Assembly (NCBI GenBank): GCA_963840145.1
Contig: CAWIXR010000002.1
Coordinates: forward strand, 325,666 to 389,665
DNA: 64,000 nt
Direction: 5' to 3'
From: an uncultured Chloroflexia bacterium
Lineage (GTDB): Bacteria > Chloroflexota > Limnocylindria > QHBO01
Within the stretch, counting starts at the first letter, position 1; every line of letters begins with the position of its first letter. A program made the translations under genes and the position numbers. This document shows positions 47,193-61,178 of the stretch, one piece after another. The notes beneath the pieces were generated by a model. It saw nothing but the letters and a program-made list of their open reading frames with translations. It was not told where the DNA came from and did not search any database.

Positions 47193-47582
47193 CTAGGCCG
47201 GAAGTCTCTCGACATCGTAGAGCTCGAGCATCCGATCGGCCGATGCGACCGTCAGCCCTTCGGCCTGCGCCTGCGCGACGAGCATCCGATCGAATGGATC
47301 TCGATGGTGAGCCGGCAGGGTCGCCGCACGGATCACATGGTCGAACGTGATCGACAGCTCGGTCACGTCGCGCCGATGCTTCGGATCCGACAGCCACGCC
47401 TCCGCGGACGTCGGCAGCTTCAGCCGGCCAGCCTCAAACTTCGTCGCAATCTCCCATGCGCTGACCGCCGAGACGTGGAGCTCATTTGCCGGATCCTCGA
47501 TGATCGTGCGGGCGGCGTTGCGGAGACGCTCGGGCTCACCCCACATCCACAGCCAGACGTGCGTGTCGAGCAGGATTCTCAT
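47193..47582 (-). CDS. vapC: VapC-family PIN toxin
   Basis: ILLDTHVWLW, SAVSAWEI, HHRDPFDRMLVAQA, SAD. Confidence 0.9.
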   Translation of the reverse strand: MRILLDTHVWLWMWGEPERLRNAARTIIEDPANELHVSAVSAWEIATKFEAGRLKLPTSAEAWLSDPKHRRDVTELSITFDHVIRAATLPAHHRDPFDRMLVAQAQAEGLTVASADRMLELYDVERLPA

Positions 47583-48072
47583 CGTTCCCACTCGTCGAGT
47601 AATCAGGATCCGGCCTGGTTGTGGACGGACCGTGGATGAGTCCGTCAATGAGATGTGAATTCGTGGACAAAGGGGATGGTCCGCGGAGCGCAATAGCCGT
47701 ACGGTGACCTCGGCGCCAACGGAGGTGCCGCCCGGACCGTCACCGGACTTGACACTGGAGAGGGCACTCGACTCGACACTCGACCGACTACTCGACCTGG
47801 CAGCGGTAACGTTCCAGGCGCGGGGGTAAGCGCGGGATCGAGCACGGGACCTTCCACCGGATCAGACACCGGACCGGGGCGCGGGAGTTCCTCCGTCGGC
47901 GCTGTTTCGTTGTCCGCTCACCGGCGGGCAACGGAGCGAATAGGGGCGACCGGCGCGACCCTCGGGACAGAGGCGCATCGGCCGCCCCGTTCGATTGTTC
48001 GGCGCACGCAGAGACCCCGGCGGATGACCGCCGGGGTCCGAGCGTCTCAGGGTTGACCTGGTCGCGCCGCGA

Positions 48073-48783
48073 TCAGGCGTTCCCGCACAGGACATAGGCG
48101 GTCACGGTGACCGCATCGGACCTGTCAGAGTTGCCGCTGTCGCTGTCGGAGACCACCTCGGCCTTGAATGTCCAGACCGTCCCCGAGGACGGGTAGGAGG
48201 AGACGGCAACGATGACTGCACCCGAGCTGGTCTCGATGACGCTCCCGCCACCGCCGTAGGCCACCAGGCCTGCGCCGCACGTTGCCGTGACGGTATAGGC
48301 CTCGCCCTTGTCCGCATCGGCGTCGCTGGCGGGCGACGCGCCCACCACTCTCACGAGGCCGACGATTCCCGAGCCGGCGGGACCAGCCGGACCCTGCGGA
48401 CCAGCCGGGCCTGTGGGGCCTGCCGGGCCCTCCGGACCAGCAGGGCCTTCCGGACCCGCCGGGCCCTCGGGACCGGGGGGACCACCGGGGGTACCCGCAG
48501 GACCTTCAGGACCTGCCGGGCCCTCGGGACCGGGCACGGGCGGGAAGGCGTTGTTGTATCGATTGAGGAAGGCAGCCATCTGGCCTCGGGTCACGCTGTC
48601 CTGCGGACCGAAGTTGCCGTTGGCGTAGCCGCTCGTGATGCCGTTCTCCACGAGCCAGTCGACGTCGTCGTGGAACGTATGGCCTGTGGGGACATCGGGG
48701 AACTGGTGGGATGCGAACACCAGACCGGTGCCTAGAACCATCGCAGTCAGGGCACCGATGGGCGCGAGGGCGCGCTTGTGCAT
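48073..48783 (-). CDS. Secreted S-layer-homology plus collagen-like protein
   Basis: Signal peptide, SLH (FPDVP..H.F...GITSGY..FGP...[10 protein letters not shown]), (GPE/GPA)n repeats, Cys-bounded C-terminal beta domain. Confidence 0.85.
48372..48535 (-). repeat. Collagen-like Gly-Pro-X coding repeats
   Basis: GPEGPA tandem units. Confidence 0.85.
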
Positions 48784-49600: not shown

Positions 49601-49744
49601 GCTGGCCAGACTCTAGCCGATCACGAACCCCGACCTTCCAATCGGCTGGTAATCGGCTGATAATCGGTCGCCGCTAGAGTGGCCTGCGAGCACCGCCGCT
49701 GGCAGGCGGCGGCATCGGTGTCTCATGCGCCGGGAGACCGTCGA

Positions 49745-52700
49745 TTGTCGGAGATCCAGCACGCCTACCCGCTGATCCTCAACAAGGTCGCGTCGCCCCA
49801 CTACGCGACGCCGCTGCTGCGTCGGGCGCGCCTGGTCGAGTGGATGAACGAGGCAGCCAACTGCCGAGCAGTCGTGGTCGCCGCCGATGCCGGCTACGGC
49901 AAGACGACGCTGCTCTGGCAATGGGAGCGCGAGGTCCCGTTCCCCTGCTACTGGTACAAGCTCGACCGCAACGACCGGGACTGGACGTTCCACGTCAGCT
50001 ATCTGATCGAGGCGATCGCCAAGCGCCACGAGGGGTTCGGGCGTCGCGCGCACTCGATGCTCCAGCAGATGGGTGGACCGGGCTCGTCACGGCCGGGCGT
50101 CGCGGCCTACCTGCTGGCGGAGATGCACCAGCGCCTGACCGAGCCGTGCACGTTCATCATCGACGACTGGCAGTACGTCAATGCGGTCACCGAGGTGCGC
50201 GGCCTCTGGAACCAAATCCTGCGAGATGCACCGCCGACCTGTCGATTCGTCTTCGCATCACGCGTCAAGCCGCGCCTCCAGTTCGCGCGGTTCAAGACGC
50301 ACGGCGGCTACGCCGAGCTCAGGACCGATGCGCTCCGCTTCACGGAGCCGGAGATCGGCGAGCTATTCCGGGACGTGTACAACGACCCGCTCGACCCATC
50401 AGAGCTCACCGAGCTCGAGCAGCGCACCGAGGGCTGGGCGGCATCCCTCCAGCTCGTCGAGGTGTCGCTGCGCGAGCGCACCTCGCTTGACGAGCGGCGC
50501 GACTTCATCCGCTCCATCACCGCCACGACCGATAGCGCTCTCTTCGAGTTCCTTGCCGAGGAGGTGCTCGACCAGCAGCCGGAGGAGACGCGAAACTTCC
50601 TGCTGACGACCTCGATCCTTCAGCAGATCACGCCAGAGGTCGCGGAGCGCCTCGCCGGCGTCCACGACGGCCGCCGCGAGCTGACCGATCTCGAGCATCG
50701 CGGCCTGTTCACGAACCGGCTCGATGAGAATCGCTACCGATATCACAACCTGTTCCGCGAGTTCCTCGAGCGCCGCCTGATCAACGACCGCTCCGAGGCC
50801 GAGGTCATCGGTCTCCACATCCACGCGGCCTCCTACTTCGAGACCACCGAACAGTGGCCAGAGGCGATCCACCACTATCTCCGCGCCGGCCTCCAGCGCC
50901 AGGCCGCCCGACTCATCGCGAAGTACGGCGAGGATGTGGTGGCGCATGGCGGCCTCGGCCGGGTCGACGAATGGCTCCGGCAGCTTCCGGCTGGCCTGAT
51001 CAAGCAGAACGCGAGGCTCAGCCTGTTTTGGCGAAGCGTGTGGATTCCATGGCCAGTGGGATGGCGCCGTTGAGGCCCTTTCACGCGCCCGTGACTACTT
51101 CGCGCGTAAGGGCGATCGTCGAATGCAAGCACTCGCCTGCCTGAAGTTGAGCACGATCTACATCCACTTGGGCAACGTCGAGTTGGGCTGTGAAGTTGCG
51201 GACGAGGGCATCGAACTCGTCCCGGCAGACGCCATCGGGACTCGGCTGAGACTCGAAGGAAATGTTGCGGTCACACGGACCTGCTGACGCAGTCAGCCGA
51301 TGCTGTCGTCGCCGAATGCGAACGGATCGCCGTCGAGGCCGAGGCGCGAGATCTTGACCACATCGCAGCGATCGCCTATCACAACGCTGGCGAGACCTTG
51401 GTGAGGATGGGCAGGGTTGACGAGGCAATCGACAGCCTGAGCGAGCGGCAGCATTCTGGGGCGACGCACCCACGAGTCCATTCGCCGATCACTCAGGATC
51501 TGGTGAAAGCTCTGCTGATGGCCGGACAAATCGCGAAGGCGAGAGCCGTCGCAACAGAGGGCCTCCAGCGGACCAAGCCGTGGACAAGGTCGAGCGCGGA
51601 AGCAGCCGACGGCATGGCAGCCGTCTTGATCTCTGATGGGAAGTTCGTCGGAGGCAGCTTGCCCTTCTCGATGGGGCGCTGCGCGATCGCGGTGCCCTCG
51701 GGGGCGTTGGAGTCACACCTCATGGCGCAACGCGCGTCGATGCCCTGTTCCTGTCCGGGAGCCTCGCCAGACCAGATGAAGAGGCCAGCTGAAGGACTGG
51801 AGCAGGTTGGACTCCCGATACGTGACTGATGCGAGCGTCGCGGACGCACTCTCGGCTCACACCGCTGGCGACTGTCGTGGGAAGTGTCGAGATGCAATGA
51901 CCAGGATCTCAAGCAGACGGCAAGCGCGGCATGCGCCTGACCATGCTCGCCGGGATGGTGAAGATTGGTGTGCTTGCATTCGAACATGGACACACGCGAG
52001 ACATCGATCGCGCCTTGGCGAACGGTGCGGGAGACCCTGGACGCTGGCATCGGGACCGGGCTCCGATGGTGGTTGCGCCGATACGCTGCGCATGCGTCGA
52101 CGGCACTGCGGGTCGACGGCGGTGTTGAAGTGATTTGCCGCCTGGCGGAGCTGGATCCTGACGGCTGGCGTCCTGCATTGATCGATGTCCTCGAGGTTGC
52201 TGAGGGCCGCGACCGCGCGCAACTCTTGGAATCCTCTCGCACACCTGGCGAACAAGTCCACCGTCGATGCACTAAGGCGATCGACGGGCACGATGTCGCG
52301 GAGCTTCGCCGCGGACTTCGGACGACTCAGGCAGCACGGCTGTTCCTCCGAACGTTTCGGCAGGATGAGCCTCAACCGGGCTGACTGGAATGGTCCTGAC
52401 GATCAGCGTCGACAAGAAGCGTGTTCGATTGCTCTTGGCTCTTGCTAGCTGCGCGAGCCCATGCCGACCTCAGCCGGGACCTGTGCGTGGAGATCCTGTG
52501 GCCAGACGCGGATGCTGACGCAGCGGTGAACAACCTCAATCAGACGGTGTTCCAGCTCCGCCGATTCATCGACTCGGACTATCACGGCGGCGACAGCCCC
52601 GAGTATGTGACGAGTACATCCGAACAGGTCTCTTTGAATCCCGAGTTGATCCACACGGACCTCAGCCGAACTCCGACGATTGCCGCACACGCTCGATGGC

Positions 52701-53138
52701 GCTGACTGGAGCCAGCGGCAGCACATAGCGCGACGCTCGATCTCGCTGATCCGCGGTGAGTTTCTCGCTGATCTCGCATACGAGGAGTGGTCGTCGACGC
52801 AACAAGTCCGAGTCCACAGCGAGGTGCGTGATCTCTTGCTACCGATCGCACTGGCTTCGCGTGCTGACTTCGACGTCGACGTTAGTGTCCAGGCTGCCGC
52901 AGCACTGCTGATGCTTGATCCGTGGGATGAGAAAGCCGTCGTCGCCATGGCGGACGGACTCGCTCGCTCGGGACGGCGAGTGGCGGCCCGCACCCTTATC
53001 ACCGACTTCGCGAGCCGGTATGAGCGCGAACTCGACGAACGTCCATCGGAGGAGTTTATGCACTCCGTGACCGTCCTCGGCAACGTCCCAGTCAAGCCCA
53101 CATTGACCACTGACCGAGACTCATCGCTTGCCGCTTGA
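49745..53138 (+). pseudogene. MalT-like STAND NTPase/TPR regulator with C-terminal wHTH-BTAD; multiple frameshifts
   Basis: ADAGYGKTT, IIDDW, TEGWAASL, YRYHNLFREFL; fragments in other frames give LWPD...NLNQTVFQLRR and RGEFLAD..YEEW...LDPWDE (BTAD). The frame breaks repeatedly from about 51030, possibly through sequencing error. Confidence 0.8.
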
Positions 53139-53163
53139 CTTTTCTGCGGGGATAGCCTAGAGT
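53135..53163 (+). promoter_or_regulatory. Sigma70-type promoter for the riboswitch/peptide operon
   Basis: TTGACT-N17-TAGAGT. Confidence 0.6.
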
Positions 53164-53190
53164 ACTAGGCGTTCGCAGTACTTTAGTACT

Positions 53191-53263
53191 CGGCAGGACG
53201 CGCAGATCCATCGGCTGAACCTGGGCACTTGGGCCGATGGGGAGCAAGTAGTGCAACCGACCG
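53191..53263 (+). promoter_or_regulatory. c-di-GMP-II riboswitch aptamer
   Basis: GGACGC...CCATCGGC stem, TGGGCACTTG loop, GGCCGATGG, GGAGCAAGTAGTGCAACCGACCG 3' signature; GCAC/GTGC pseudoknot. Confidence 0.88.
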
Positions 53264-53373
53264 TTCCGTCACCGGAGTGTGTCGGTTGATACGTCCGTAA
53301 TCGGAAGAGGGCACCTTCTGATGTCTCGAGAAAACTTCAAGGGCTGGTAAGTCCCAGCCCAGTGAGGAACAGC

Positions 53374-53472
53374 ATGCGGGCATCGATTCGTCAATGGATC
53401 GCGCTGCTTGTCAGCCTCGGATCCATCGTCGCCTTGGCACTTGCCGGGGGAGCTGGCGTCCGGGGCTTGTAG
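53374..53472 (+). CDS. Small peptide (32 aa), putative signalling-peptide precursor; absent from the ORF track
   Basis: MRASIRQWIALLVSLGSIVALALAGGAGVRGL; GAGGA RBS; first ORF after the riboswitch. Confidence 0.7.
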   Translation: MRASIRQWIALLVSLGSIVALALAGGAGVRGL

Positions 53473-53514
53473 AGGCGCGATGCTAGACTCGCGACCTCAC
53501 AGTAATGTGATGTC

Positions 53515-54897
53515 GTGACCCCGGCAGTTCAGCGCCTCATCCTCGCAACCGTAGCCGTCGCAGTTCTTGCAATTGCGGCGGCTCTTTTGTGGTTCCCACT
53601 CCGACCGGAGATCGGGGGACCCATCGGAGTCGCTTACTGGACGGTCCTGGCTCTGGCGGCGAGCGCGCTGCCGGTGCAGCTCCCGCGCGGATCGATCGTG
53701 TCAGTGGGCGCGGCACCGATCCATTGCCGCGACGCATCTTGGGCGGGCCAATCGCCGGCGCCGCCGTCGGCGTGATCGGGACCCCGACCTTCGCGAGCTC
53801 AGGGGTCAGATTCCGTGGTACGGAACGCTGTTCAACCACGCGGAGCTGGCGATCTCTGGCGTCGCGGCTGGCATCACGTTTGTCCTCACAGCCGAGCTCC
53901 TGGGCGGGGAGGGCTTCTCGTTCTTCAGCGCGCATTCATTCGTGGCGGCCCTGCTCGCCGGAGTCGTCTTCCTGTCCGTGAACTTCTCGCTGACGCTGCT
54001 CGCGGTGTAGTGCTCGCACTGGCGCGTCCATCTCAACGATCTGGGCGGAGGACGTCGGCGCGGTTGCGATCAGCTTCGTCGGCTTGATCCCCATCGGTTG
54101 GTTGATGGCGCAGACCTTCCTGCTCCCGAACAGCATCGGATGGTGGGCAGTGGCCCTGTTCGCCGTCCCGCTCTTCACGACACGCGTGTGCCTACGCTCG
54201 GTACGTCGAGACGCGGGAGCTGTTCGAGCAGACGATCGAGGCGCTCTCGAAGGCCGTCGACGCGCGCGACCCGTACACGCGCAACCACTCGAGCCGGGTC
54301 AGCCACATCGCTGAGGCGATGTGCCGCGTGATGCGGCTGCCGGAGAACGAGATCGAGCGCATCAAGTGGGCCGGGCTGCTGCACGACATCGGAAAGATCG
54401 GCATCCGCGACAACGTGCTGCTGAAGGAGGGGCCGCTGGACAAGAGCGAGCGAATCCTCATGAACCAGCACCCGACCATCGGCGCGGAGATCGTGGCGCC
54501 GGCGCGCCAGCTGGCCACCGAGGCGCCGCTGATCCGGGCCCATCACGAGTGGATCAACGGCTCCGGCTATCCGGACGGCCGTGAGGCACTCGACATCCCG
54601 CGCGGCGCGCGCGTTCTCACGATCGCCGACGCATACGAGGCGATGACCTCCTCGCGCCCCTACCGCAAGACCCCGCTAACCCACGAGCAGGCCGTCGACC
54701 AGCTCGAGCGCTTCAGCGGCATCCAGTTCGACCCGGAGATCGTGCCGATCCTGGTCGGCCTGGATCGGTCCATCCTCGACCGCCCGCCCGACCGCGACGA
54801 CGAGCTGCCCACCATGCTCCACCAGCCCCTCCCACGAGACGTGCCCCCGTCGCCGGAGCAGCCGCGCACTGCCCTGGCCTCGGACGATGTTTCTTAG
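53515..54897 (+). pseudogene. Membrane-sensor HD-GYP c-di-GMP phosphodiesterase (N-terminal multi-TM, MASE-like); about 5 frameshifts
   Basis: TM segments spread over three frames (LPVQLP.G..VSV, LGGP, LFNHAELAIS); intact C-terminal DARDPYT..HS.RV, LLHDIGK, HHEW.NGSGYPDG, IADAYEAMTS.RPYR, QFDP. Confidence 0.85.
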
Positions 54898-56812
54898 CAC
54901 CATCCTCCTCGCGCTCATCGTGGGCGCACTGGCCGGGGGAGGCGTTCCCGCGGCTGGCGGACCTGAAGCTGCGCTGGGTCTGGCTGCTCTTCGCCGCGCT
55001 GCTGCTGCGCCTCCTTGCCGGGCTGAGCCGAGAGACCGGCATCGCCGCCGACATCCCGACCGGCTGGGCCTTCATCCTCGCCTACGGCCTGATCTTCATC
55101 TGGCTCTGGGGCAACTGGCGCGTGCCGGGGCTCCAGATCGCCGCGGTCGGCATCGGCGCGAACATGGCCGCCGTCCTCCTCAACGCCGGCCAGATGCCGA
55201 TCTGGTCGGCCGCCTTCTTCGCCGCCGGCTTCGACGAGTCGGTCATCGCCAACGATCCCTTCCACTTCCTCCTTCGAGCCGAGACGGTCGCGGACTTCGT
55301 CGCAAGCGGCGGGCTCTTCGGCGACGTCATTCCGCTGCCGATCCCGATCATCCGCGACGTGATCAGCATCGGCGACGTGCTGCTGGCGCTCGGGATCTTC
55401 TGGGCCGTCGTCTACTCGATGACCCGCACCGACGCGCCGTCGCGCGGCGCGCTGGCGCTCGGCGCGACGACGGTGCATGCGGCCCGCGACGGCCACGCCC
55501 GGAACGGCCGGCGCGGTGTACGCCGAGGCGCGCGAGATCCCGCGCCGAGGTCTCCGAGGCCGGCGCCGAGCTGGCGGGCATGCGGCGCCAGTCGCCGTAC
55601 CTGCGCCTCTTCGCGAACCGCAACTTCAGCCTGCTGTGGACCGGCCAGCTCATCTCGCTGATCGGCGACCGGATCCACGTCATCGCGCTCGGCGCGCTCG
55701 TCGCCGGTCGCGGCACCGATCTCGAGGTCGGCATCGTCTTCGCCATGACCGCGGTCCCGAGCATCTTCCTGGGCCCGGTCGCCGGCGTGCTCGTGGACCG
55801 ATGGGACCGCCGCCGCACGATGATCGCCTGCGACCTCGTCCGCGCCGTTCTCGTGCTGGCGGTGCCGGTGGCGTTCGAGATCCACATCGGCCTCGTCTAC
55901 GCGAGCGCCTTCGCGCTCGCCACCGTGACCCTCCTCTTCCGCCCGGCCAAGACCGCGGTGATCCCCGACGTCGTCGGCGAGCGCGACCTGGTGGCCGCCA
56001 ACTCCGCGCTGTCGGTGCCGGAGACCGCGGCGGACCTCATCGGCTTCCCGATCGCGGGCCTGATCGTCACGGCACTGGCCGGGGTGCTCGGTGCGGCCTT
56101 CGTCCTCGACGCCGGGACGTACGTCGTCTCGGCGGTGCTGCTGTGGGCGATGATCCTGCCGCGCCAGGTGTCCGAATACACCGAGCGCATGTCGGTTCGC
56201 GCGCTGTGGCGCGAGATGCGCGAGGGCTTCGCCTTCCTGTGGAGGCAGGCGGCGCTGCGCTCGAACACGCTGCTCTCCGCCGTCGCGCAGGTCGCGGTCG
56301 GCGCCGAGATCGTCGTCAGCCTGATCTACGCCCGCGACGTCGTCGACCGCGGCACGCTGAGCTTCGAGCAGATGTACGCGCTGCTGCTGACGGCCCTCGC
56401 GGTCGGCAGCGTGGTGGCCGGGGTCGCCGTCGGCGCCATCGGCGATCGGTTCCCGAAGGGGCCGATGGTGATCGTCGGCTTCATCGGCATGGGGCTCTCA
56501 CTCGTGCTCACCGGCCTCGTGACCGATCCGATCCTGGCGCTCGTCTCCTTCTTCCTGGGCGGCGCCTTCAACATGGTCTTCATCATCCCCACCGTCACGC
56601 TGTTCCAGGAGCTCACCCCGCAGCGGCTGATGGGCCGGGTCGTTGCCAGCCGACAGGCGCTTGTGTTCGGCTCGATCGCCGCCTCGATGGGGCTCTCCGG
56701 GTACCTCAGCGGCGTCATCGGTCCGGCGCAGGTGCTGGTCATCAGCGGCGCCATCTGTGCGGCCGCCGGCGCCGTCGGCATCCTCATTCCGTCGATGCGC
56801 AACGCTCGGTAG
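54887..56812 (+). CDS. DUF5317-MFS transporter fusion (three apparent frameshifts restoring the frame)
   Basis: The alternative frame at 54945-55475 reads RLADLKLRW...GANMAAVLLNAGQMPI...FGDVIPLP..VISIGDVLL (DUF5317); from about 55580 an MFS with NRNFSLLWTGQLIS..GD and GVLVDRWDRRRTM. Confidence 0.75.
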   Translation: MFLSTILLALIVGALAGGGVPAAGGPEAALGLAALRRAAAAPPCRAEPRDRHRRRHPDRLGLHPRLRPDLHLALGQLARAGAPDRRGRHRREHGRRPPQRRPDADLVGRLLRRRLRRVGHRQRSLPLPPSSRDGRGLRRKRRALRRRHSAADPDHPRRDQHRRRAAGARDLLGRRLLDDPHRRAVARRAGARRDDGACGPRRPRPERPARCTPRRARSRAEVSEAGAELAGMRRQSPYLRLFANRNFSLLWTGQLISLIGDRIHVIALGALVAGRGTDLEVGIVFAMTAVPSIFLGPVAGVLVDRWDRRRTMIACDLVRAVLVLAVPVAFEIHIGLVYASAFALATVTLLFRPAKTAVIPDVVGERDLVAANSALSVPETAADLIGFPIAGLIVTALAGVLGAAFVLDAGTYVVSAVLLWAMILPRQVSEYTERMSVRALWREMREGFAFLWRQAALRSNTLLSAVAQVAVGAEIVVSLIYARDVVDRGTLSFEQMYALLLTALAVGSVVAGVAVGAIGDRFPKGPMVIVGFIGMGLSLVLTGLVTDPILALVSFFLGGAFNMVFIIPTVTLFQELTPQRLMGRVVASRQALVFGSIAASMGLSGYLSGVIGPAQVLVISGAICAAAGAVGILIPSMRNAR

Positions 56813-56890
56813 GAGCGGTTTCCGGGCGCGGAGTATATACGTATATACCGGGCGCCAACCAGCCCGACGATCTGCTACCCTTCGCGCGCC

Positions 56891-59693: not shown

Positions 59694-61178
<1,485 letters not shown>

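Follow-up and report, generated by a model that had tools for sequence, protein, structure and literature searches.

A predicted c-di-GMP feedback operon of Candidatus Limnocylindria combining a class II riboswitch, a conserved mini-protein, and MASE9-HD-GYP and DUF5317-MFS membrane proteins

The window analysed here is a stretch of 64,000 nucleotides (nt) from an uncultured bacterium of the clade Candidatus Limnocylindria, phylum Chloroflexota. Its subject is a locus in which a regulator gene is followed by a leader containing a riboswitch for cyclic di-GMP (c-di-GMP), two short upstream open reading frames (uORF1 and uORF2), and genes for a phosphodiesterase and a transporter-like protein. 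Comparison with related genomes identifies this locus as a conserved operon of the clade. The account favoured here, with moderate confidence, is that c-di-GMP induces the operon in a feedback loop and that the phosphodiesterase acts together with two membrane proteins, one of them the mini-protein encoded by uORF2 as a membrane-embedded or membrane-proximal partner.

Organisation of the operon

The locus comprises, in order, a MalT-like regulator with STAND, TPR, and BTAD regions; a promoter; a 5′ hairpin; a class II c-di-GMP riboswitch; uORF1; uORF2; a TAGACT box; a phosphodiesterase gene with MASE9 and HD-GYP parts (MASE9-HD-GYP); and a gene in which DUF5317 is fused to a major facilitator superfamily transporter (DUF5317-MFS). 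All elements matched by Pfam in the window (BTAD, HD_5, DUF5317, and MFS) lie on the same (+) strand. Gene order is identical in the relatives fetched, and the order of the leader elements is common to the window, the 11 relatives aligned with it in family f1, and 19 leaders of family f3. The original prediction had named a promoter, a class II aptamer, a 32-residue hydrophobic ORF, and co-oriented domains, and had treated them as one unit; all of these are found in the window, and the shared order in relatives bears out the unit.

The genome measures 2.47 Mb in 8 contigs, and the window has a G+C content of 69.4%. Metagenome runs contain at most 0.12 of the window's sampled words, in soil, sediment, and similar samples, and the contigs from such runs come from relatives. 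A profile search of the genome returned seven GGDEF and three HD_5 matches; in view of the GGDEF matches, c-di-GMP is presumably synthesised by the host. GGDEF and HD_5 share a single open frame at G000:C2:185280-186371 (1118 codons) and at G000:C4:406366-407370 (617 codons), and both of these look like GGDEF-HD-GYP fusion proteins.

The arrangement is a variant, not previously described, of the riboswitch-controlled c-di-GMP operon. Literature on class II c-di-GMP riboswitches, HD-GYP proteins, and small ORFs yielded no description of it, nothing was found connecting Limnocylindria with c-di-GMP, and no mention of DUF5317 or its accession PF17248 was found in the literature searched.

The leader and its predicted switch

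Transcription is predicted to start from a sigma-70-type promoter-like site, TTGACT-N17-TAGAGT (53135-53163, +), which is the sole such site in 52900-53700 (one found against 0.2 expected). The TTGAC element is invariant in 12 of 12 aligned sequences—the window and 11 relatives—and equivalent sites occur as TTGACC-18-TATAGT in L041 and as TTGACA-17-TATACT in L194. The leader opens with a hairpin or palindrome, AGTAC-TTTA-GTACT (53177-53190, +), recognised from conservation and from RNAalifold pairs: GTAC-N4-GTAC is invariant in all 12 family f1 sequences and persists in the 19 family f3 leaders, where the loop varies and the flanks are complementary. The pattern AGTAC-N3-4-GTACT occurs once only in the 2.47 Mb genome.

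The riboswitch aptamer follows at 53188-53271 (+), matching RF01786 with 60.7 bits against a gathering score of 53.5 (E-value 4.9e-11). This Rfam model exceeds its gathering score in 6 of 12 relatives' loci and its cut-off in 48 of 151 genomes of the class, and a model built here (R1) matches the aptamer in 49 of 49 related loci with at least 2000 nt upstream of DUF5317. Elsewhere in the genome, a second RF01786-like match at G000:C4:197952-198038 (−), sub-threshold at 36.4 bits, lies ahead of a small protein with a signal-peptide-like start.

Next comes hairpin H1 (AACCGACCGUUCC / GGAGUGUGUCGGUU; 53254-53288, +; −20.5 kcal/mol, z −3.1), whose 5′ arm is the 3′ strand of the aptamer, so that H1 and the aptamer have AACCGACC in common. 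The equivalent stem in L041 (family f3) likewise overlaps the aptamer, is flagged as terminator-like, and has a U-run behind it; the same stem with a UUUU or UUUC tail recurs in most of the 19 family f3 leaders that were aligned. L194 comes from a distant family of Chloroflexota (58% G+C); there, the aptamer scores 52.7 bits and the H1 equivalent is a canonical terminator with a long U-run.

The aptamer fold and H1 are mutually exclusive, and thus ligand binding should allow read-through, making the aptamer an ON switch; with a phosphodiesterase as the payload, this ON switch would exert negative feedback on c-di-GMP. Bound c-di-GMP would hold the 3′ strand of the aptamer, the competing terminator or anti-aptamer hairpin would be blocked, and transcription would read on, yielding more phosphodiesterase and, in turn, a drop in c-di-GMP. 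The feedback loop through the riboswitch that had been predicted originally fits this inferred ON-switch architecture.

Downstream of H1 lies uORF1 (53321-53350, +), which the original prediction did not include, with nine codons and a stop encoding MSRENFKGW. Of 33 loci, 32 have it, the remaining one having lost it through a 1-nt deletion, and its length is nearly constant: nine codons in family f1 (eight in one genus) and 10 in family f3 (nine in L060), where a GGAGG-type Shine-Dalgarno site precedes it. The peptide always ends in K-[GSP]-[WF]-stop, and the last codon, TGG or TTC, represents a change of aromatic residue rather than a conserved RNA word; in L037 and L038, uORF1 and uORF2 both end in TLKGF. 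No codon-position signature is seen in uORF1. Because it has been found only together with the riboswitch, uORF1 is taken as part of the expression platform. An RNAalifold consensus hairpin, GGGCUGG-UAAGU-CCCAGCCC (53341-53360, +), spans its stop codon in family f1 only, with a compensatory change in one of six pairs. Between uORF2 and the HD-GYP gene, a box at 53484-53489 (+) reads TAGACT (TAGAGT in family f3) and is near-invariant as TAGACTC (TAAACTC in 1 of 12 sequences); it is possibly an internal −10 element.

The mini-protein

The second small frame, uORF2 (53374-53472, +), encodes the 32-residue mini-protein MRASIRQWIALLVSLGSIVALALAGGAGVRGL behind a GAGGA Shine-Dalgarno site 6 nt upstream, and it is conserved in families f1, f3, f2, f5, and f19. 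The peptide has 29-32 residues: a basic N terminus, a hydrophobic stretch, and then A-[LI]-A-G-G-A-[SG]-x-[KR]-G-[FW]. It matches no Pfam or NCBIfam family, and there is just one ORF of its type in the genome.

A lack of a conserved small ORF at homologous loci would have spoken against the original prediction. The frame is instead found in 26 of the 28 riboswitch loci, from two families, that could be assessed, and a recognisable homologue occurs in all 52 aptamer-bearing loci drawn from the 80 closest DUF5317-MFS loci, in regular form in 51 and with a C-terminal extension in one; some of these have frame problems or GTG starts. The ratio of nonsynonymous to synonymous substitution rates (dN/dS) came to 0.33 (53 pairs) and 0.24 (103 pairs), compared with 2.0-2.6 for shifted frames of the same DNA, and variability follows codon position in the order 3 > 1 > 2. 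By these measures uORF2 is a real gene under purifying selection along its whole length.

The mini-protein is also independent of the riboswitch, as three observations indicate. The aptamer is absent from families f2 (0 of 49 genomes) and f5 (0 of 1), and the f2 and f5 loci that lack aptamer, regulator, and uORF1 keep a uORF2 homologue ahead of MASE9-HD-GYP and DUF5317-MFS. In family f19, the small ORF has a strong terminator of its own. In L194 (6648-6896, −), two identical 31-codon small ORFs (MKWATLKMKVIYGLMVIASLVMAAGADSRWA), each with a GGAGG Shine-Dalgarno site, lie in tandem between the riboswitch-terminator and a multi-transmembrane (multi-TM) HD-GYP gene. The mini-protein is most likely a small candidate partner of DUF5317 and/or the MASE9 sensor, placed in or at the membrane and tuning the phosphodiesterase; its small-residue motif looks like a helix-packing face.

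The large proteins

The regulator gene (49679-53138, +; Pfam evidence) is interrupted in the assembly and encodes a MalT-like STAND NTPase with the P-loop GYGKTT, a TPR region, and a C-terminal winged helix with BTAD. The pieces in the window match BTAD with 30.4 bits (cut-off 22.1; E-value 5.8e-7), while TPR families fall under their cut-offs. The intact regulator of relative L021 has 1111 residues, with BTAD at an E-value of 1.4e-7 and Trans_reg_C at 21.1 bits, under its cut-off. Its match to MalT (NF003420; 277 bits, 2.3e-82) covers the N-terminal 635 residues only and falls short of the equivalog cut-off of 537 bits, and the C terminus is a winged helix with BTAD in place of the LuxR type; a MalT orthologue was rejected on both counts, and the protein is predicted to work like a STAND regulator, not as a MalT equivalog.

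The candidate phosphodiesterase, MASE9-HD-GYP (53515-54897, +), is recognised by HD_5 (PF13487; 1.3e-33 on 54202-54894) and by its catalytic motifs HDIGK and HHEWINGSGYP, which are readable in the frame 1 translation; its reading frame changes at least four times. The window's pieces do not match MASE9 (PF20972); the intact orthologue of L021 does so with 32 bits against a cut-off of 24.3, beside an HD_5 match of 4e-35.

The last gene, DUF5317-MFS (54887-56812, 641 codons, +), overlaps the HD-GYP stop by 11 nt at its start. PF17248 matches at 54945-55500 with 87.8 bits against a cut-off of 25, and the transporter part, at 55481-56809, meets the general Pfam cut-offs (MFS_1 5.7e-27, MFS_3 1.6e-24). 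The fusion is DHA3-like; the cut-off of the DHA3 subfamily model TIGR00900 is not reached in L021 (205.4 bits vs 319.6). It forms one ORF of 639 residues in L021, is likewise intact in L032 (from an unpublished genome, and one of the 12 loci scanned for the aptamer), and is called as a single gene in all 120 database proteins listed (the best 120 of 424 matches), which are annotated merely as MFS transporters. Across relatives, intact ORFs measure about 1111-1153 residues for the regulator, about 455-480 for HD-GYP, and about 640 for DUF5317-MFS.

DUF5317 across the Chloroflexota

DUF5317 is found in 5979 representative clusters at an E-value of 0.001 or less and in 77 of 251 sampled Chloroflexota genomes. 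One unpublished genome (G331) is counted among the 251, and two more (G144 and G118) among the 151 genomes of the class scanned for the aptamer; none of the claims made here depends solely on unpublished genomes. Among 75 sequences, the residues N92, G101, M103, and P104 (the latter three within N-G-G-x-M-P) and D146 are invariant, and N76, N99, and S160-x-G162-D163 are near-invariant; the conserved polar residues appear, on a reading of the sequence, to lie in or beside hydrophobic segments. A likeness of the stretch around S-I-G-D-V-L-L-A-L-G to GxGD/LspA-type intramembrane proteases was pursued and dropped, with hhalign probabilities of 1.9% for Peptidase_A24 and 3.4% for Peptidase_A8, a weak negative given shallow alignments of 13 rows each; PDB sequences gave no match either (best E-value 0.27). 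A role for DUF5317 as the membrane processor of the agr-like layout drawn originally thus found no support.

The wider survey covered 20 DUF5317 loci outside Limnocylindria, amounting to 186 kb. In 13 of these, DUF5317 has an HD-GYP gene no more than about 1.5 kb away, and in nine a MalT-like regulator is directly upstream and co-oriented. Similar small ORFs, eight in all, occur in seven of the 20 loci: L194 (two), L201, L202, L203, L204, L206, and L209. A loose small-ORF scan recovered seven of these eight in the 186 kb, compared with two in the 2.47 Mb genome, one of them the true locus, and none in 95 kb of control loci; the enrichment of ORFs of the type LA[AG]GA-x4-6 at DUF5317 loci of other Chloroflexota, as forecast, was therefore observed.

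Layouts vary around this core. In family f19, the end of the regulator is followed by the small ORF, MASE9-HD-GYP, MFS, and then DUF5317 as a separate gene. L201 and L204 have regulator, small ORF, and DUF5317, with HD-GYP not found; in L202 and L203, the small ORF lies downstream of DUF5317; and MFS is absent from many peptide-bearing loci, for example L194, L201, and L204. Stand-alone DUF5317 paralogues in the window's genus sit directly behind multi-TM-GAF-GGDEF-EAL genes of about 890-914 residues in three of four loci (L073 6083-8824, −; L074 2993-5653, +; L075 6739-9417, −). The N-terminal membrane domain of these neighbours matches no Pfam family and shows no relation to MASE9 (BLASTP E-value 0.14), and no small ORF was seen upstream of their genes.

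Judged from these gene neighbourhoods, DUF5317 is constantly accompanied by an enzyme of c-di-GMP turnover and a MalT-like regulator and often by a mini-protein. A mini-protein family—with a basic N terminus, a hydrophobic stretch, A-[AG]-G-A, and a short tail often comprising K/R and W/F—is seen to travel with DUF5317 across the Chloroflexota, usually beside an HD-GYP gene and a MalT-like regulator. This apparent phylum-wide association of DUF5317, mini-protein family, and MalT-like regulator has not been described so far.

Evidence weighing against the feedback operon

Several observations weigh against the proposed c-di-GMP feedback operon. When the aptamer is aligned to the Rfam model, non-canonical pairs occur in its outer helix, P1. 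H1 in the window has no U-run, and no terminator was flagged there in a scan of 52900-53700, the case for termination control coming entirely from relatives; given the missing U-run, control in leaders of the window's type may be translational or Rho-dependent. The proposal also leaves unexplained uORF1 itself and the [KR]-G-[WF]-stop ending common to both uORFs. Outside Limnocylindria, the small ORF was not found in 13 of the 20 DUF5317 loci surveyed, and in six of the 20 HD-GYP was not found, the 10 neighbouring ORFs scanned there matching no c-di-GMP family. Among the runs listed as containing window sequence, none is an RNA dataset. Finally, all three large genes are broken in the window, while other frames of 1118, 924, and 1120 codons in the same genome stay open.

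A peptide signal as an alternative

A possible but doubtful alternative, put forward in the original prediction, is that the locus encodes a peptide-signal system resembling quorum sensing, in which uORF2 is a precursor whose C-terminal tail is released and sensed, so that information on the population or the environment sets c-di-GMP degradation. Release would occur through signal peptidase after ALA|GG or through processing or export by DUF5317-MFS; the tail would then be detected by MASE9 or, once taken up, by the TPRs of the MalT-like regulator. The peptide does have the design of a pheromone precursor, with its basic N terminus, a short hydrophobic core (about 14 residues in family f3), and A-x-A before G-G, and its conservation is strongest in the last 8-12 residues. 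The tandem duplication in L194 points the same way, as does the terminator behind the gene in family f19, which is often seen with structural peptide genes. An exporter-type MFS is fused or adjacent to DUF5317, and a TPR-bearing regulator is linked not only in nine of the 20 other loci but throughout families f1 and f3. There is, in addition, a divergence hot spot at 51951-53841, spanning the C-terminal half of the regulator, the leader, and the start of HD-GYP, with 73.9% identity to L105, whereas the parts of the operon on either side reach about 84%; an NtrC-like gene, as a yardstick, is 89.7% identical to another relative, L106.

Against this stand the lack of any protease-like signal in DUF5317, the loss of MFS from L194, L201, L204, and many other peptide-bearing loci, and the variability of the presumed cleavage site: the signal-peptide-like pattern that visual inspection suggests in Limnocylindria, A-[LI]-A ahead of G-G, gives way to V-L-G, I-L-A, or M-A-A before G in families f2, f19, and others. 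The conserved small-residue run suits a transmembrane packing face equally well. As to the defining parts of agr, Pfam scans of the operon proteins found no AgrB and no histidine kinase, and the 26 aligned uORF2 peptides contain no conserved Cys; the cassette is not an agr system, and an agr-like reading, though possible, found no support.

About as doubtful is a wider version in which the Chloroflexota possess a peptide-signalling module of a precursor of about 30 residues, DUF5317 for processing, export, or reception, and the MalT-like STAND/TPR protein as transcriptional arm, often wired into c-di-GMP. The features of DUF5317 in point would be two invariant Asp and three invariant or near-invariant Asn residues in or next to hydrophobic segments. 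In such a module c-di-GMP would gate production of the peptide, and the peptide would set c-di-GMP degradation, via HD-GYP and the class II riboswitch; uORF1, with the same end residues as the precursor tail, could supply the regulator with a cytoplasmic mimic of the signal. If the peptide were exported, it would constitute a new route from an external peptide to a second messenger in a widespread uncultured soil clade.

Frame breaks in the window's copy

The multi-TM HD-GYP and DUF5317-MFS gene models of the original prediction hold in relatives, where each is a single ORF, and fail in the window, where none of the three large genes is one ORF in this assembly. The HD-GYP sequence is spread over frames 1, 0, 2, 0, and 1, its changes of frame (at least four) falling within 53515-54200; the DUF5317 part (54945-55500) is out of frame with both the start codon and the MFS part of ORF 54887-56812, implying two frame changes; and the regulator has at least three, together with in-frame stops.

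These breaks could mean that the locus is a decaying set of pseudogenes, with genuine frame-shift mutations and an operon that has lost its function in this genome, an explanation that appears unlikely. It would account for at least nine frame changes plus in-frame stops within about 6 kb, set beside the long open frames elsewhere in the genome and multi-kb clean frames within the window. The pattern among assemblies runs counter to it. When loci with full flanks were divided by record name, HD-GYP was broken in 13 of 24 'MFD..contig_' assemblies and in none of 12 other records, DUF5317-MFS in 8 of 24 and none of 12, and the regulator in 13 of 22 and 3 of 11. The operon is broken, at differing places, in 20 of the 24 assemblies bearing this type of name; each of the 12 others has unbroken HD-GYP and DUF5317-MFS genes. 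The extra bases at 54189 and 54944, two of the window's break points, do not appear in short-read contigs of relatives obtained from other runs; few further indel sites are clear in the DNA alignment to L026 and L027, which is noisy at 80%-84% identity. Moreover, the leader, both uORFs, and the MFS part are all intact in the window. As the breaks follow assembly type and the extra bases are missing from relatives' short-read contigs, the frame shifts in the three large genes are most likely assembly errors. For their clustering in the operon, strain heterogeneity at a fast-evolving locus is offered as a guess.

Leader peptides or drug efflux

A very unlikely possibility is that both small ORFs are cis-acting leader peptides only, the translation of which—perhaps with stalling at [KR]-G-[WF]-stop—sets downstream expression. 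Both do lie between aptamer and HD-GYP with the same tripeptide before the stop, and uORF1, in its constant length, strong Shine-Dalgarno site, missing codon-position signature, and restriction to riboswitch loci, behaves as expected of a purely regulatory uORF. The properties of uORF2 are different: it is under purifying selection over its full length, occurs without any riboswitch, has its own terminator and tandem copies, and is found downstream of DUF5317 in L202 and L203. With 29-32 residues, the peptide would, in addition, not yet have emerged from the ribosomal tunnel when the stop codon is reached; a force-sensing arrest peptide of the SecM/MifM type was accordingly considered implausible and rejected by reasoning, the chain being too short to leave the tunnel. 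A purely cis-acting role thus appears to fit uORF1, not uORF2.

That the operon is chiefly a drug-efflux unit, with the DHA3-type MFS, a relative of macrolide and tetracycline pumps, as payload and the leader ORFs mediating antibiotic-induced attenuation as in mef and erm leaders, is highly improbable: the two short leader ORFs and the NCBIfam matches to Mef(A), Tet(V), Tap, and EntS, along with TIGR00900 at 205 bits, would be in keeping with it, but all these matches are weak and far under family cut-offs, MFS stands at the end of the operon and many related loci lack it while DUF5317, HD-GYP, and peptide persist, and the leader has a c-di-GMP aptamer and no known antibiotic-sensing leader.

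Neighbouring features of the window

Four further features lie near the operon. Behind it, a 16-nt palindrome, GTATATACGTATATAC (56833-56848), stands inside a 41-nt stretch absent from L026 and L027; the palindrome occurs five times in the 69% G+C genome and may be a repeated palindromic element or an operator. An intact ORF of 494 residues (59694-61178, +) has the look of an NtrC-type sigma-54 activator, with receiver, AAA+ (GESGTGKE), and Fis-type helix-turn-helix regions and 77.6% protein identity to a homologue in genome G002. On the other side, the ORF at 48073-48783 (−) has a long collagen-like run of G-P-x repeats after a signal-like N terminus, and the one at 47193-47693 (−) resembles, as judged by eye, a PIN/VapC-type toxin (LLDTHVWLW).

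Comparison with known systems

Class II c-di-GMP riboswitches (RF01786) can act as ON switches, for example in Clostridioides difficile. The present element belongs to the same aptamer family, and a strand of the aptamer likewise doubles as a terminator arm in L041 and L194. It differs in that the enzyme under control degrades c-di-GMP, which would close a feedback loop, in its two conserved uORFs, and in the window's platform without a U-run. With a riboswitch and, behind it, two conserved uORFs, the leader is a compact example of such an arrangement.

MgrB, acting on PhoQ, is a small membrane protein that modulates a sensor enzyme. The one-helix mini-protein of about 30 residues is similarly expressed together with a membrane sensor, on which it could exert feedback; there is, however, no sequence relationship, and the partner here is a candidate phosphodiesterase with a DUF5317 companion.

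The agr and RRNPP/SHP-type systems are peptide pheromone cassettes, and the locus shares with them a short ORF that resembles a precursor and is conserved towards its C terminus, along with membrane proteins, an exporter, and, close by, a regulator with TPRs. In contrast to these systems, the locus has no AgrB, no AgrC-type kinase, and no thiolactone Cys, and its regulator is a STAND ATPase of 1100 residues, not an RRNPP protein.

The Rpf/diffusible signal factor (DSF) system combines a fatty-acid signal, a histidine kinase with a REC domain, and the HD-GYP protein RpfG. In both cases an extracellular signal could couple to c-di-GMP hydrolysis by HD-GYP; here, however, the candidate signal is a peptide, a kinase is missing, and enzyme and sensor domain form a single protein. 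The RpfG family and the quorum-sensing control of VCA0210 are both mentioned in the available part of a study of HD-GYP proteins (10.1101/2021.11.05.467447).

The MASE9-HD-GYP group was defined by Galperin and Chou and includes, for example, T. maritima TM1467 and S. venezuelae HdgA; according to the available passages of the two sources, the MASE9 ligand and the signal activating these proteins are unknown (10.1101/2021.11.05.467447; PMC6205966). The phosphodiesterase described here, judged for its MASE9 part from the intact orthologue of L021, resembles the group in its architecture: MASE9, an integral-membrane domain, precedes an HD-GYP part that shows the motif HHExx[DN]GxGYP of that work (10.1101/2021.11.05.467447). 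It differs in its setting: the word 'riboswitch' occurs in neither text, and their available passages describe no small ORF or DUF5317 partner (10.1101/2021.11.05.467447; PMC6205966). For MASE9, the linked mini-protein and the constant membrane companion are concrete candidates for the ligand or activating signal; DUF5317, in turn, can now be placed beside enzymes of c-di-GMP turnover, a regulator of the MalT-like type, and a family of small ORFs.

Among small proteins encoded behind c-di-GMP riboswitches, the closest parallel, going by the available part of the source, is a family of small membrane proteins from C. difficile (PMC13724677). These have 58 residues, are controlled by class I OFF riboswitches, stand alone, act on sporulation, and have no homologues outside C. 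difficile, as the same portion of the paper relates (PMC13724677). Common to both, on that partial account, is a small membrane-associated protein directly behind a c-di-GMP riboswitch; in Candidatus Limnocylindria, by contrast, the riboswitch is of class II, the protein has 29-32 residues, and it is encoded in an operon with HD-GYP and DUF5317 (PMC13724677).

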